Positions 7,001 through 13,000 of a stretch of DNA of 64,000 nucleotides are shown piece by piece. Position 1 is the stretch's first letter; every line of letters starts with the position of its first letter. Location of the stretch: assembly GCF_030013205.1 (NCBI RefSeq), contig NZ_CP122648.1; one strand, written 5' to 3'. Source of the DNA: Escherichia coli. Lineage in GTDB: Bacteria; Pseudomonadota; Gammaproteobacteria; Enterobacterales; Enterobacteriaceae. The position numbers are program-made.

Positions 7001-10000
7001 TAACAAGGAGAGCATTAAAATGGGTAAACTCACGGGCAAGACAGCACTGATTACGGGCGCATTGCAGGGAATTGGCGAAGGAATTGCCAGAACTTTTGCG
7101 CGTCATGGCGCAAACCTAATCTTGCTGGATATCTCCCCTGAGATCGAAAAGCTGGCGGACGAACTGTGTGGTCGTGGTCATCGCTGTACGGCGGTTGTCG
7201 CCGATGTGCGTGACCCGGCGTCGGTCGCCGCAGCTATCAAGCGCGCGAAGGAAAAAGAAGGGCGCATTGATATCCTGGTGAATAACGCAGGCGTTTGTCG
7301 TCTGGGCAGTTTCCTCGATATGAGCGATGAAGATCGCGATTTCCATATTGATATCAATATTAAAGGCGTATGGAACGTCACGAAGGCGGTGCTGCCGGAG
7401 ATGATTGCCCGCAAAGATGGTCGCATTGTGATGATGTCTTCAGTCACTGGCGATATGGTGGCCGATCCGGGTGAAACGGCGTATGCCTTAACGAAAGCGG
7501 CGATTGTTGGCCTGACTAAATCGCTGGCGGTGGAGTACGCGCAGTCTGGTATTCGCGTTAACGCCATCTGCCCGGGATACGTACGCACGCCAATGGCGGA
7601 AAGCATTGCCCGCCAGTCGAACCCGGAAGATCCAGAATCGGTGCTGACTGAAATGGCAAAAGCAATCCCGATGCGTCGCCTCGCCGATCCGCTGGAAGTC
7701 GGCGAACTGGCAGCCTTCCTCGCATCGGATGAATCAAGTTATTTAACCGGTACACAGAATGTGATTGATGGCGGCAGCACACTGCCGGAGACGGTTAGCG
7801 TCGGCATCTGATTCACCTCTGTTTCCTCCCTGCATTTGTGGGGAGGATTTCGTCTTGAACCCGGTTCTTATTCCCTTTTCAACTTCCAAATCACCAAACG
7901 GTATATAAAACCGTTACTCCTTTCACGTCCGTTATAAATATGATGGCTATTAGAAAGTCATTAAATTTATAAGGGTGCGCAATGGCCGTTAACTTACTGA
8001 AAAAGAACTCACTCGCGCTGGTCGCTTCTCTGCTGCTGGCGGGCCATGTACAGGCAACGGAACTGCTGAACAGTTCTTATGACGTCTCCCGCGAGCTGTT
8101 TGCCGCCCTGAATCCGCCGTTTGAGCAACAATGGGCCAAAGATAACGGCGGCGACAAACTGACGATAAAACAATCTCATGCCGGGTCATCAAAACAGGCG
8201 CTGGCGATTTTGCAGGGCTTAAAAGCCGACGTTGTCACTTATAACCAGGTGACTGACGTACAAATCCTGCACGACAAAGGCAAGCTGATCCCGGCCGACT
8301 GGCAAACGCGCCTGCCGAATAACAGCTCGCCGTTCTACTCCACCATGGGCTTCCTGGTGCGTAAGGGTAACCCGAAGAATATCCACGACTGGAACGATCT
8401 GGTGCGCTCCGACGTAAAGCTGATTTTCCCGAACCCGAAAACGTCGGGTAACGCACGTTACACCTATCTGGCGGCATGGGGTGCAGCGGATAAAGCTGAC
8501 GGTGGCGACAAAGCCAAAACCGAACAGTTTATGACCCAGTTCCTGAAAAACGTTGAAGTGTTCGATACCGGCGGTCGTGGCGCGACCACCACCTTTGCCG
8601 AGCGCGGGCTGGGCGATGTACTGATTAGCTTTGAATCGGAAGTAAACAACATTCGTAAACAGTATGAAGCGCAGGGCTTTGAAGTGGTGATTCCGAAAAC
8701 CAATATTCTGGCGGAATTCCCGGTGGCGTGGGTCGATAAAAACGTGCAGGCCAACGGTACGGAAAAAGCAGCAAAAGCTTACCTGAACTGGCTCTACAGC
8801 CCGCAGGCGCAAACCATCATCACCGACTATTACTACCGCGTAAATAACCCGGAAGTCATGGACAAACTGAAAGACAAATTCCCGCAGACCGAACTGTTCC
8901 GCGTGGAAGACAAATTTGGCTCCTGGCCGGAAGTGATGAAAACCCACTTCACCAGCGGCGGCGAGTTGGACAAGCTGTTAGCGGCGGGGCGTAATTAATG
9001 TTTGCAGTTTCATCAAGACGCGTGCTGCCGGGCTTTACCTTAAGCCTCGGCACCAGTCTGCTGTTTGTGTGCCTGATTTTGCTGCTGCCGCTCTCCGCGC
9101 TGGTGATGCAGCTCTCTGAGATGAGCTGGGCGCAGTACTGGGAGGTGATCACCAACCCGCAGGTAGTCGCGGCCTACAAAGTGACACTGCTGTCGGCGTT
9201 TGTGGCATCAATTTTTAACGGCGTTTTCGGCCTGCTGATGGCGTGGATTTTAACCCGTTATCGCTTTCCGGGCCGCACGCTGCTTGATGCGCTGATGGAT
9301 TTACCCTTTGCGCTACCGACGGCGGTAGCCGGTTTGACGCTGGCCTCGCTCTTTTCCGTGAACGGTTTTTACGGTGAATGGCTGGCGAAGTTTGATATCA
9401 AAGTCACCTATACCTGGCTGGGGATTGCGGTGGCGATGGCCTTTACCAGCATTCCGTTTGTGGTGCGTACCGTGCAGCCGGTGCTGGAAGAGTTAGGCCC
9501 GGAATATGAAGAAGCGGCGGAAACGCTCGGCGCAACGCGCTGGCAGAGTTTCTGCAAAGTGGTGCTGCCGGAGCTATCTCCGGCGCTGGTGGCGGGCGTG
9601 GCGCTGTCGTTTACCCGTAGTCTTGGTGAATTTGGCGCGGTGATTTTTATCGCCGGGAACATCGCCTGGAAGACAGAAGTGACGTCGCTGATGATTTTTG
9701 TTCGCTTACAGGAGTTTGATTACCCGGCGGCGAGCGCGATTGCTTCGGTGATCCTCGCGGCATCCCTGCTGCTGCTGTTCTCAATTAACACTCTGCAAAG
9801 TCGCTTTGGTCGGCGTGTGGTAGGTCATTAATGGCGGAAGTGACACAGTTGAAGCGTTATGACGCGCGCCCGATTAACTGGGGCAAATGGTTTCTGATTG
9901 GCATCGGGATGCTGGTTTCGGCGTTCATCCTGCTGGTGCCGATGATTTACATCTTTGTGCAGGCGTTCAGTAAAGGGCTGATGCCAGTTTTACAGAATCT

Positions 10001-13000
10001 GGCCGATCCGGACATGCTGCACGCCATCTGGCTGACGGTGATGATTGCGCTGATTGCCGTGCCGGTGAACCTGGTGTTCGGCATTCTGCTGGCATGGCTG
10101 GTGACGCGCTTTAACTTCCCCGGACGCCAGTTGCTGCTGACGCTGCTGGACATTCCGTTTGCCGTGTCGCCGGTGGGTGCCGGTCTGGTGTATCTGCTGT
10201 TTTACGGCTCTAACGGCCCGCTCGGCGGCTGGCTGGATGAACATAATCTGCAAATTATGTTCTCCTGGCCGGGAATGGTGCTGGTCACCATCTTCGTGAC
10301 GTGTCCGTTTGTGGTGCGTGAGCTGGTGCCGGTGATGTTAAGCCAGGGCAGCCAGGAAGACGAAGCGGCGATTTTGCTGGGCGCATCTGGCTGGCAGATG
10401 TTTCGCCGCGTCACGCTGCCGAACATCCGCTGGGCGCTGCTTTATGGCGTGGTGCTGACCAACGCCCGCGCGATTGGCGAGTTTGGTGCGGTGTCGGTGG
10501 TTTCCGGCTCGATTCGCGGCGAAACACTTTCGCTGCCGTTACAGATTGAATTGCTGGAGCAAGACTACAACACCGTCGGCTCCTTTACCGCTGCCGCGTT
10601 GTTGACGCTGATGGCGATTATCACCCTGTTTTTAAAGAGTATGTTGCAGTGGCGTCTGGAGAATCAGGAAAAACGCGCGCAGCAGGAGGAACATCATGAG
10701 CATTGAGATTGCCAATATTAAGAAGTCTTTTGGTCGCACCCAGGTGCTGAACGATATCTCACTGGATATTCCTTCTGGTCAGATGGTCGCGTTGCTGGGG
10801 CCGTCCGGTTCCGGGAAAACCACGCTGCTGCGCATTATCGCCGGGCTGGAGCATCAAACCAGCGGGCATATTCGCTTCCACGGCACCGACGTCAGCCGCC
10901 TGCATGCGCGCGATCGTAAAGTTGGTTTCGTGTTCCAGCACTATGCGCTGTTCCGCCATATGACGGTGTTCGACAATATCGCTTTCGGCCTGACGGTGCT
11001 GCCGCGTCGCGAGCGCCCGAATGCCGCAGCCATCAAAGCGAAAGTGACAAAATTGCTGGAGATGGTGCAGCTTGCGCATCTGGCGGATCGTTATCCGGCA
11101 CAGCTTTCCGGCGGGCAGAAACAGCGCGTGGCGCTGGCGCGTGCGCTCGCTGTGGAACCGCAAATTCTGCTGCTTGATGAACCGTTTGGCGCGCTGGATG
11201 CGCAGGTGCGTAAAGAGCTGCGTCGCTGGCTGCGTCAGTTACATGAAGAGCTGAAATTCACCAGCGTGTTTGTGACCCATGACCAGGAAGAAGCGACCGA
11301 AGTAGCCGATCGTGTAGTGGTGATGAGCCAGGGCAATATCGAGCAGGCTGATGCACCGGACCAGGTATGGCGCGAACCAGCGACCCGTTTTGTACTCGAA
11401 TTTATGGGCGAAGTGAACCGCCTGCAGGGAACCATTCGCGGCGGGCAGTTCCATGTTGGCGCACATCGCTGGCCGCTGGGCTATACACCTGCGTATCAGG
11501 GGCCGGTGGATCTCTTCCTTCGTCCGTGGGAAGTGGATATCAGCCGCCGTACCAGCCTCGATTCGCCGCTGCCGGTACAGGTACTGGAAGCCAGCCCGAA
11601 AGGCCACTACACCCAATTAGTTGTGCAGCCGCTGGGGTGGTACAACGAACCGCTGACGGTTGTGATGCATGGCGACGATGCCCCGCAGCGTGGCGAGCGT
11701 TTATTCGTTGGTCTGCAACATGCGCGGCTGTATAACGGCGACGAGCGTATTGAAACCCGCGATGAGGAACTTGCTCTCGCACAAAGCGCCTGATAGGTTG
11801 AGTGAATGTTAAACGCCCGGAGGCGCTTCCCGCGATCCGGGCTTTTTAATGGCAAGGTTTGTAACCTGTAGGCCTGATAAGACGCGCAAGCGTCGCATCA
11901 GGCAACACCACGTATGGACAGAGATCGTGAGTACATTAGAACAAACAATTGGCAATACGCCTCTGGTGAAGTTGCAGCGAATGGGGCCGAATAACGGCAG
12001 TGAAATCTGGTTGAAACTGGAAGGCAATAACCCGGCAGGTTCGGTGAAAGATCGTGCGGCGCTTTCGATGATCGTCGAGGCGGAAAAGCGCGGGGAAATT
12101 AAACCGGGTGATGTGTTAATCGAAGCCACCAGTGGTAACACCGGCATTGCGCTGGCAATGATTGCCGCGCTAAAAGGCTATCGCATGAAATTGCTGATGC
12201 CCGACAACATGAGCCAGGAACGCCGTGCGGCGATGCGTGCTTATGGTGCGGAACTGATTCTTGTCACCAAAGAGCAGGGCATGGAAGGTGCGCGCGATCT
12301 GGCGCTTGAAATGGCGAATCGTGGTGAAGGAAAGCTGCTCGATCAGTTCAATAATCCCGATAACCCTTACGCCCATTACACCACTACCGGGCCGGAAATC
12401 TGGCAGCAAACTGGCGGGCGCATTACCCATTTTGTCTCCAGCATGGGAACAACCGGCACCATCACCGGCGTGTCACGCTTTATGCGCGAACAATCCAAAC
12501 CGGTGACCATTGTCGGCCTGCAACCGGAAGAGGGCAGTAGCATTCCCGGCATTCGCCGCTGGCCTGCGGAATATCTGCCGGGGATTTTCAACGCTTCGCT
12601 GGTGGATGAGGTGCTGGATATTCATCAGAGCGATGCGGAAAACACCATGCGTGAACTGGCGGTGCGGGAAGGAATATTCTGTGGCGTTAGCTCCGGCGGC
12701 GCGGTTGCCGGAGCACTGCGCGTGGCAAAAGCTAACCCCGGCGCGGTGGTTGTGGCGATCATCTGCGATCGCGGCGATCGCTACCTCTCCACCGGCGTGT
12801 TTGGGGAAGAACACTTTAGCCAGGGGGCGGGGATTTAAGATTATTGCGCAGGCACTGTTTTATCCGTCTGCGCAATTAGCGCATGTAAAAAAGGTTGTGC
12901 GTTCTCATCGCTTTTACCGGGCATCTTCACGATATACGGCTTCCCGGTAATCGATGACGACGAGGCCACCTTATCAATAAACTGCTCGGCAGTGTCAATG

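Follow-up and report, generated by a model that had tools for sequence, protein, structure and literature searches.

Conserved stop/start overlaps and embedded Shine-Dalgarno elements along the cysPUWA genes of Escherichia coli

Junctions at which the stop codon of one gene overlaps the start codon of the next (ATGA, with a stop-start distance of -4, and TAATG or TGATG, with a distance of -1) support termination-reinitiation in hyfHI, astDB and menDH (Huber et al. 2019) and in trpB–trpA. Four out of five native E. coli gene pairs that overlap were found to be strictly coupled, usually depending on a Shine-Dalgarno (SD) sequence, while the fifth, bioBF, is uncoupled and initiates de novo (PMC6728339). 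Coupling is limited to overlaps or very short gaps and is enriched among genes coding for heteromeric complexes (PMC10666635). A stop-start distance from -8 to +10 nt is treated as predictive of reinitiation, and long phase 1 overlaps are considered to arise typically from the loss of a stop codon, without coupling (Huber et al. 2023). Overlaps are found in approximately 15% of the ORF pairs of E. coli operons, and genome-wide the ratio of translation efficiencies in overlapping pairs is as variable as in non-overlapping ones (PMC5318159).

The locus analysed here corresponds to cysPUWAM of E. coli K-12, coding for a sulfate/thiosulfate ABC importer (TC 3.A.1.6 family), in its genes, their order and their annotated coordinates, with no difference of substance. 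The window, i.e., the whole stretch of 64,000 nucleotides that was analysed, comes from a non-K-12 E. coli, and its segment 7900-12900 is 100% identical to E. coli swine isolates. The following genes were delimited from the ORFs, the NCBI PGAP annotation and profile searches:

7982..8998, plus strand: cysP, thiosulfate/sulfate periplasmic binding protein, 338 aa
8998..9831, plus strand: cysU (also called cysT), permease subunit, 277 aa
9831..10706, plus strand: cysW, permease subunit, 291 aa
10696..11793, plus strand: cysA, ATP-binding subunit, 365 aa

The PGAP coordinates, taken from an E. coli record 100% identical over window positions 7900-12900, are the same as those in the original prediction, and the names given there to the four genes are correct, as the PGAP annotation and full-length family profiles agree on them. 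CysP is covered in full, residues 1-338, by the 338-position profile NF008106 (E 7.7e-219) and also matches TIGR00971 (E 9.2e-184), which identifies it as a binding protein of the sulfate/thiosulfate family. CysU (NF008208, residues 1-277 of 277, 580.7 bits against a cut-off of 415) and CysW (NF008620, residues 1-291 of 291, 616 bits against 442) are the two paralogous permease subunits expected of a CysPUWA importer, and CysA (NF008105, residues 1-365, 755 bits against 502) carries the Walker A motif GPSGSGKT of an ABC ATPase. According to the ORFs and the annotation, the genes lie on a single strand in the order P-U-W-A(-M) that characterizes such importers.

The three junctions between these genes, together with two others in the window that had been named in the original prediction, are as follows:

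8996..9000, plus strand: cysP/cysU junction TAATG (-1), stop TAA 8996-8998, start ATG 8998-9000, A8998 common to both
9829..9833, plus strand: cysU/cysW junction TAATG (-1), stop TAA 9829-9831, start ATG 9831-9833, A9831 common to both
10696..10706, plus strand: cysW/cysA junction ATGAGCATTGA (-11), cysA ATG 10696-10698, cysW stop TGA 10704-10706
45849..45853, plus strand: ypdF/ypdE junction TAATG (-1), A45851 common to stop and start
51013..51032, minus strand: ypdA stop (TGA 51032..51030), 14-nt spacer with GGAG and ypdB start (GTG 51015..51013), no overlap

All three cys overlaps, at 8998, at 9831 and over the 11 nt 10696-10706, are present exactly as predicted, both in the sequence and in the PGAP annotation. 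The last one is dual-coded, giving Met-Ser-Ile-Glu at the beginning of CysA and His-Glu-His-stop at the end of CysW. Such overlaps are ordinary in bacterial operons: of the 35 pairs of neighbouring genes that share a strand in this window, six show them, and a single TAATG is unremarkable by itself. The cys junctions are real and conserved, and they were previously known, the gene boundaries having been annotated for decades.

Overlaps of this kind would vanish if the true starts lay elsewhere, and precisely this holds for ypdA/ypdB. The predicted overlap at 51030-51033 (TTGA) exists only if an upstream in-frame TTG is taken as the ypdB start; with the annotated GTG the genes are separated by a 14-nt spacer containing GGAG, and the GTG is supported by the LytR and BtsR response-regulator profiles, which, on the ORF extended to the TTG, begin only at residue 7-8. 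The ypdF/ypdE overlap at 45851, in turn, was confirmed, and four of the five junctions named in the original prediction are thus described correctly there. For the cys genes an annotation artefact has a probability close to nil. The ATG codons of cysU, cysW and cysA are each the first start codon past an in-frame stop, so they cannot be moved upstream, and they cannot be moved downstream because the match to the equivalog profiles begins at residue 1 and that to TIGR00968, a broad CysA profile, at residue 3. The next ATG codons, codon 40 in cysA, directly before the Walker A motif, and codon 27 in cysW, within a hydrophobic segment, were rejected as starts since their use would delete conserved sequence. 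Moreover, 77-79 species carry an ATG at the homologous position, and a conserved SD lies 5-8 nt from it. Re-annotation of the cys starts, which would have abolished the overlaps, was thus rejected, and the overlaps stand.

Each of the three cys starts is preceded, at a functional spacing of 8, 5 and 6 nt, respectively, by an SD element lying within the upstream gene. Their strength was calculated as the energy of the duplex with the anti-SD and ranked among the 54 genes in the window:

8986..8989, plus strand: weak SD-like GGGG of cysU, within Ala-Gly codons of cysP, 8 nt before the ATG; -6.1 kcal/mol, rank 19 of 54
9822..9825, plus strand: SD AGGT of cysW, within Val-Gly codons of cysU, 5 nt before the ATG; -6.2 kcal/mol, rank 16 of 54
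10684..10689, plus strand: strong SD AGGAGG of cysA, located where cysW encodes its variable C-terminal tail, 6 nt before the ATG; -10.3 kcal/mol, rank 2 of 54

The SDs of cysU and cysW are hence of average strength, and that of cysA is very strong. The SD of ypdE is GGAGAGG (-7.4 kcal/mol).

The junctions were compared in about 80 Enterobacterales species, with CysW identity down to 79%; three loci (L050, L054 and L067) with odd values stemming from frameshifted or truncated assemblies were left out of the counts. The -1 layout of cysP/cysU is present in 67 of 80 species (57 with TAATG, 10 with TGATG), and a spacing of 0 (TAAATG) occurs in 10 species, or 11 according to how one frameshifted assembly is treated, most of these species being of the Citrobacter type. 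cysU/cysW is at -1 in 77 of the 78 usable species (49 TAATG, 28 TGATG), and the same proportion, 77/78, have cysW/cysA at -11, the exception being Shimwellia with -4. The stop codon alternates repeatedly between TAA and TGA across these species, yet the -1 layout persists. As to the SDs, both third-codon positions of the cysU GGGG are G in 65/66 species; in the cysW AGGT the third positions are A in 75 and T in 69 of 77 species and the GG is invariant, while the base at -10 is G instead of T in 14 species, mostly Erwiniaceae, giving (G)GGAGG or AGGAGG. In the cysA element all of 77/77 species have the same GGAG (10685-10688), two synonymous third positions included. SD bases at synonymous third positions are thus 90-100% conserved, against a background of 0.7-2.5% invariant third positions or synonymous sites in the same genes and species. 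All 11 nucleotides of ATGAGCATTGA are invariant in 77 species; among its third bases that of Ile3 is invariant and that of Ser2 is 99% conserved when the -4 species is counted. Judged from these alignments, in which synonymous sites are nearly saturated, the geometry kept in some 80 species goes beyond chance, and both the junctions and the ribosome-binding sites (RBS) embedded in them are under purifying selection at synonymous sites.

The cysP/cysU, cysU/cysW and ypdF/ypdE junctions resemble the described reinitiation junctions in that each combines a -1 motif, within the -8 to +10 range, with an SD in the upstream gene. The products of cysU and cysW, moreover, share one complex, the class enriched for such junctions, whereas cysP/cysU departs from it, CysP not being a stoichiometric subunit. 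cysW/cysA differs from the described junctions, as its 11-nt phase 1 overlap falls outside the -8 to +10 range. The prediction that these are classic coupling junctions therefore holds in part: it suits the two -1 junctions, which are in line with the published E. coli pairs and have conserved intragenic SDs, but not the -11 junction, with its distance and an SD ranking second of 54. Translational coupling is plausible at the former and less so at the latter, because of the very strong SD and the position outside the published reinitiation range.

The reading that we prefer, at a probability of roughly 60%, is that cysPUWA(M) has an ordinary polycistronic layout in which cysU and cysW are reached by reinitiation and cysA partly by independent initiation. 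The geometry, the gene starts and the conservation, including that of the SDs at synonymous sites, are shown by the data, and reinitiation, the additional initiation at cysA and any effect on subunit ratios are what we infer from them. cysU, cysW and cysA each begin at the ATG behind the SD embedded in the last codons of the preceding gene. A ribosome ending cysP or cysU halts with the next AUG directly adjacent, and most likely stays on the mRNA and reinitiates there, aided by a modest SD, so that the translation of cysU and cysW would be partly tied to that of the gene before. At the -11 junction the cysW frame continues beyond the cysA start until its first out-of-frame stop in cysA codons 3-4, and the very strong, invariant AGGAGG probably recruits or holds ribosomes at cysA; the translation of cysA would then be independent, at least in part, and outpace that of cysW, which would fit the presence of two CysA molecules per CysU/CysW pair. 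A scan of cysP-cysA found no convincing internal terminators and no sigma-70 consensus promoter sites; it also missed the CysB-dependent cysP promoter, and this null result is weak evidence, since CysB-activated promoters are non-consensus.

Coupling could also be mediated by structure, as in atpHA or the MS2 coat and lysis genes, with the RBS held in a hairpin with the upstream coding sequence and opened by the translating ribosome. For cysU (0.33) and cysA (0.27) the RBS is indeed predicted to be unpaired with a mean probability lower than the window median of 0.44. Nevertheless, an open RBS is predicted for cysW (0.51), and 100-nt windows centred on the junctions fold no better than shuffled sequences (z +0.78, +0.73 and +0.61), 144-160 of 200 shuffles folding at least as well when local folding is considered; a stable RBS-sequestering structure was thus not found in these windows. 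Nor did an Rfam scan of 7700-12100 match any family, and we regard this mechanism as very unlikely.

The same folding results bear on the possibility that all three genes rely on independent initiation only, the overlaps having arisen as a side effect of genome compaction and of drift in stop codons, with each gene being translated by ribosomes newly recruited to its own SD and upstream translation being irrelevant. Folding predicts no inhibitory structure that would occlude the RBS (z +0.6 to +0.8), so free 30S subunits are expected to reach it. The SDs of all three genes are conserved at synonymous sites, and the cysA one, exceeded in strength by only one other among 54 genes, is in keeping with initiation that is independent or anchored by the SD. 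Also, the -11 stop lies in conserved codons of cysA, Ile3-Glu/Asp4 (ATT GAx), and Tsukamurella, with the equivalent ATT AAC, has a TAA at that offset; this geometry can thus have a passive origin. Citrobacter species tolerate TAAATG. Published data lean the same way where relative translation varies as much among overlapping pairs as among the rest (PMC5318159), where bioBF initiates de novo although overlapping (PMC6728339), and where long phase 1 overlaps like the -11 one are typically uncoupled and derived from stop-codon loss (Huber et al. 2023). Against this stand the strict coupling of four of the five E. coli pairs (PMC6728339), the merely average SDs of cysU and cysW, and the -1 layout, which 67/80 and 77/78 species have kept although synonymous change is saturated and the stop has switched repeatedly between TAA and TGA. 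Taken together, independent initiation only appears possible but clearly less probable than the combination of reinitiation at the -1 junctions with partly independent initiation of cysA.

The sulfate transporter complex has the composition CysU1:CysW1:CysA2, its fixed subunits do not include CysP, a soluble binding protein of the periplasm, and the CysUWA core also works with Sbp, encoded elsewhere; an output of 1:1:1:1 is therefore not the target. The claim that the overlaps ensure stoichiometric subunits is overstated on these grounds, given also the variable translation ratios of overlapping pairs (PMC5318159) and proteomic data, which are not equimolar: CysP and CysA are about equal and far above CysU and CysW, although membrane proteins are under-measured (PMC8144880). 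In these data, those of Mori 2021, CysP and CysA have values but those of CysU or CysW are often zero, which is only suggestive given the membrane-protein bias. The supplement of the Burkhardt 2017 profiling lists only cysP, the other cys genes being below its expression filter, and a literature search on the cys genes brought up nothing specific about their translational coupling or ribosome profiling. It is conceivable, though doubtful, that the invariant 11-nt overlap and the invariant strong SD form a device tuned for about two CysA per CysW, in keeping with the CysU1:CysW1:CysA2 complex, in which the SD would recapture ribosomes that end cysW, letting them reinitiate on cysA, and would also recruit free ribosomes.

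Sulfate ABC operons of Paracoccus, Azospirillum, Sinorhizobium, Rhizobium, Allomeiothermus and Tsukamurella share tight packing with that of E. coli: by automated start calls, 11 of the 17 annotated junctions in these six genera are overlaps, and the distance is between -17 and +15 nt in 15 of the 17. The geometry of each junction varies by lineage, and that of E. coli is not conserved in distant phyla; both this and the unequal proteomic levels count against the preferred reading. The T>W junction is at -11 in Azospirillum, Sinorhizobium and Rhizobium loci and at +58 in Tsukamurella, and W>A ranges from +31 to -17. In an actinobacterium the W>A distance is again -11.

Short overlaps of stop and start codons rank with the commonest features of bacterial operons, and the finding matters little beyond correct annotation. 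Since the junctions and the SDs embedded in them are under purifying selection, the codons at the cys junctions should not be regarded as freely recodable in synthetic-genome or codon-optimisation work. The cysW/cysA junction would offer a clean natural test case for the way in which a long phase 1 overlap together with a strong SD sets a 2:1 subunit ratio; if it does act as a ratio device, the -11 at W>A in an actinobacterium would represent convergence and not an accident.

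The overlaps at the junctions of the cysP-cysU-cysW-cysA operon, which codes for the sulfate/thiosulfate ABC importer, are real, conserved and under selection. They are already known, being textbook material in an operon annotated long ago. The genes were located by the NCBI annotation of an identical record and by a mechanical ORF listing, which give the same coordinates for the first four; the cysM entry comes from the NCBI annotation of one identical record.

7982-8998, + strand, cysP
8998-9831, + strand, cysT (= cysU)
9831-10706, + strand, cysW
10696-11793, + strand, cysA
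11927-12838, cysM

Several complete E. coli chromosomes are 100% identical to the window over 7900-12900, and this region is present in 5,425 of the 5,426 genomes of the collection. The cysP stop (TAA, 8996-8998) and the cysU start (ATG, 8998-9000) share A8998, the cysU stop (TAA, 9829-9831) and the cysW start (ATG, 9831-9833) share A9831, and cysW and cysA overlap by 11 nt (ATGAGCATTGA; cysA ATG 10696-10698, cysW stop TGA 10704-10706), all as predicted. Re-annotation of the starts, named by the original prediction itself as what would undo the overlaps, was tested, and the cysU, cysW and cysA starts hold. Each is the first ATG, GTG or TTG downstream of an in-frame stop in the ORF listing, so no upstream shift is possible; the curated equivalog profiles of CysT, CysW and CysA cover the full length starting at residue 1, and TIGR00968, a CysA profile of broad taxonomic range, matches from residue 3 on, so that by these alignments a downstream shift is not plausible. 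The homologous ATG position is kept at these starts in about 80 species.

A CysW scan of species-representative genomes yielded 80 Enterobacteriaceae and Erwiniaceae loci (79-100% protein identity), three of which, with frameshifted or truncated assemblies, were excluded. The cysP/cysU junction is a 1-nt overlap (-1) in 67 of the 80 loci (57 TAATG, 10 TGATG), has spacing 0 (TAAATG) in 10, or 11 with one frameshifted assembly, mostly in Citrobacter-type species, and is +2 in a single locus. cysU/cysW is -1 in 77 of the 78 usable loci (49 TAATG, 28 TGATG), and cysW/cysA is -11 in 77 of 78, the exception, at -4, being Shimwellia. The variants are TAAATG in place of TAATG in loci L006 and L009-L015 of the species set (Citrobacter and related), and ATGA in Shimwellia pseudoproteus (locus L075, about 4360-4375). 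Synonymous sites are close to saturated across this set, the third base being invariant in only 4/159 (cysA), 1/150 (cysW) and 2/165 (cysU) codons for invariant amino acids. Against this background, none of the 11 bases of the cysW/cysA overlap varies among the 77 species with -11, and GGAG (10685-10688), within the otherwise variable CysW tail, is invariant, two third-codon positions included; in GGGG (8986-8989) both third positions are G in 65 of 66 species, and in AGGT (9822-9825) they are kept in 75/77 and 69/77. This conservation shows purifying selection at the nucleotide level on the junction geometry and on the Shine-Dalgarno (SD) sequence embedded before each start. The sampled species are related and hence non-independent, but the comparison is fair, since the background is drawn from the same species and genes.

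Beyond Enterobacterales the geometry of a given junction varies by lineage. Large plasmids or chromids of four alphaproteobacteria, an actinobacterium and a member of Deinococcota supplied six annotated sulfate-transporter loci (starts being automated calls), all tightly packed, with 11 of 17 junctions overlapping and 15 of 17 between -17 and +15 nt. cysT/cysW is -4 or -11 in five of them and +58 in Tsukamurella, while cysW/cysA ranges from +31 to -17. In Tsukamurella the latter is also -11, with the stop TAA from ATT AAC, whereas in Enterobacterales TGA comes from ATT GAG; in both it falls within CysA codons 3-4 (Ile, then Glu/Asp/Asn), so a cysW frame overrunning the cysA start tends to terminate at these codons, in keeping with the published origin of 'phase 1' long overlaps (-8, -11, -14 ...), which arise from loss of the upstream stop codon and are not shortenable to -4 or -1 (Huber et al. 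2023).

The commonest prokaryotic spacings are -4 and -1 (PMC12548453, a 2025 review), and 820 unidirectional E. coli pairs lie within -8 to +10 nt; subunits of heteromeric complexes account for 30% of such pairs vs 6.8% where the distance exceeds 20 nt (PMC10666635). In the window 6 of 35 adjacent same-strand gene pairs have annotated overlaps, namely the three cys junctions, ypeA/yfeZ (14 nt, 1286-1299), a small ORF upstream of mntH, and ypdF/ypdE; several further pairs are separated by just 1-3 nt (ligA/ypeB +1, yfeC/yfeD +1, murQ/murP +3), and the list originally given was incomplete. The small ORF, WP_418134935.1 (PGAP, 18 codons, 38654-38710), extends 20 nt into mntH (start 38691) and could be a leader peptide or an upstream ORF. 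As to the two ypd pairs likened to the cys junctions, ypdF/ypdE does overlap (TAATG, 45849-45853), but ypdA/ypdB does not: on the minus strand the ypdA TGA (51032..51030) is separated from the annotated ypdB GTG (51015..51013) by a 14-nt gap containing GGAG. The supposed overlap (TTGA, 51030-51033) uses an upstream in-frame TTG, rejected in favour of the GTG on profile evidence, since the LytR and BtsR profiles (related regulators) match only from residue 7-8 of the TTG-extended ORF.

Measured as duplex energy with the 3' end of 16S rRNA over 54 annotated genes of the window, the SDs of cysU (-6.1 kcal/mol, rank 19) and cysW (-6.2 kcal/mol, rank 16) are average (median -5.75), and that of cysA (-10.3 kcal/mol) ranks second. 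Folding of 100-nt windows centred on the junctions is no better than that of dinucleotide shuffles (z +0.78, +0.73 and +0.61), giving no sign of a local hairpin hiding the downstream start until the upstream ribosome arrives. An Rfam search of the cys region gave no family match, and a scan with crude criteria found neither promoter-like sites nor convincing internal terminators within cysP-cysA. By analogy with studied pairs, termination-reinitiation is the best-supported reading for the two -1 junctions, and coupling there is plausible: the next AUG lies right beside the stop codon of the terminating ribosome, and a modest SD precedes it. Reporter tests showed strict coupling for four out of five overlapping pairs native to E. 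coli, usually with a contribution from the SD (PMC6728339). At the cysW/cysA junction coupling is doubtful, because its efficiency drops faster with growing overlap than with growing gap (PMC12548453), -11 lies outside the -8 to +10 nt range taken as predictive of reinitiation (PMC10666635; Huber et al. 2023), and the cysA SD would be strong enough to recruit free ribosomes. We infer that cysA translation may be partly independent of, and more efficient than, that of cysW.

Between cysA and cysM, a 133-nt spacer (11796-11926) contains the hairpin GCCCGGA(14-nt loop)TCCGGGC with TTTTTAA after it (about 11815-11851) and, 3' of this, a REP-like palindrome, GCCTGATAAGACGCGCAAGCGTCGCATCAGGC (about 11872-11903); these could act on the transcript between the two genes, attenuating or stabilising it. 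cysM starts with GTG (11927) behind a weak SD (-3.0 kcal/mol, rank 50/54); the ORF listing instead extends the gene to an upstream ATG (11849), giving a frame that crosses the REP and departs from the annotation. Transfer of the reference-strain annotation to the window allowed for two indels. Relative to strain K_EC180, the window is without 156 bp beside the tRNA-Lys/Val cluster (29078-29475), a place where the record of that strain has an 'RtT sRNA' repeat annotated, and has 115 bp fewer at the tRNA-Ala(GGC) locus (33920-33995; one copy vs two), copy-number differences indicating that it derives from another E. coli strain. A degraded IS200/IS605 tnpA adjoining an insQ/TnpB-family gene and IS200C transposase genes are also present (~31260-33000, 36574-37032, ~62350-62810); the two IS200C copies of the reference annotation are identical, so the second maps non-uniquely and its position in the window is tentative.

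That the overlaps ensure stoichiometric subunits, as originally proposed, is an overstatement. CysP is a soluble periplasmic binding protein and no fixed subunit, and Sbp, encoded elsewhere, serves the same membrane complex; type I ABC importers have two ATPase subunits per permease pair, so the ratio needed among CysU, CysW and CysA is 1:1:2, not 1:1:1. In genome-wide profiling the spread of relative translation is about equal for ORF pairs with and without an overlap (p = 0.06; PMC5318159). Published absolute proteomics is non-equimolar: in mass fractions, CysA lies at roughly 6e-4 to 1.1e-3, CysP at 6e-4 to 7e-4, CysU at no more than 0.5-2.5e-4, and CysW at about 3e-5 or is undetected (PMC8144880). 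Converted via protein lengths, these make permease molecules several-fold to tens-fold fewer than CysA; with polytopic membrane proteins under-measured by mass spectrometry, the data say no more than that the output is not seen to be equimolar. More CysA than CysW, if true, would suit a transporter needing two CysA per CysU/CysW pair, and the Shimwellia and Citrobacter-type junctions are natural comparators for any effect of geometry on subunit ratios.
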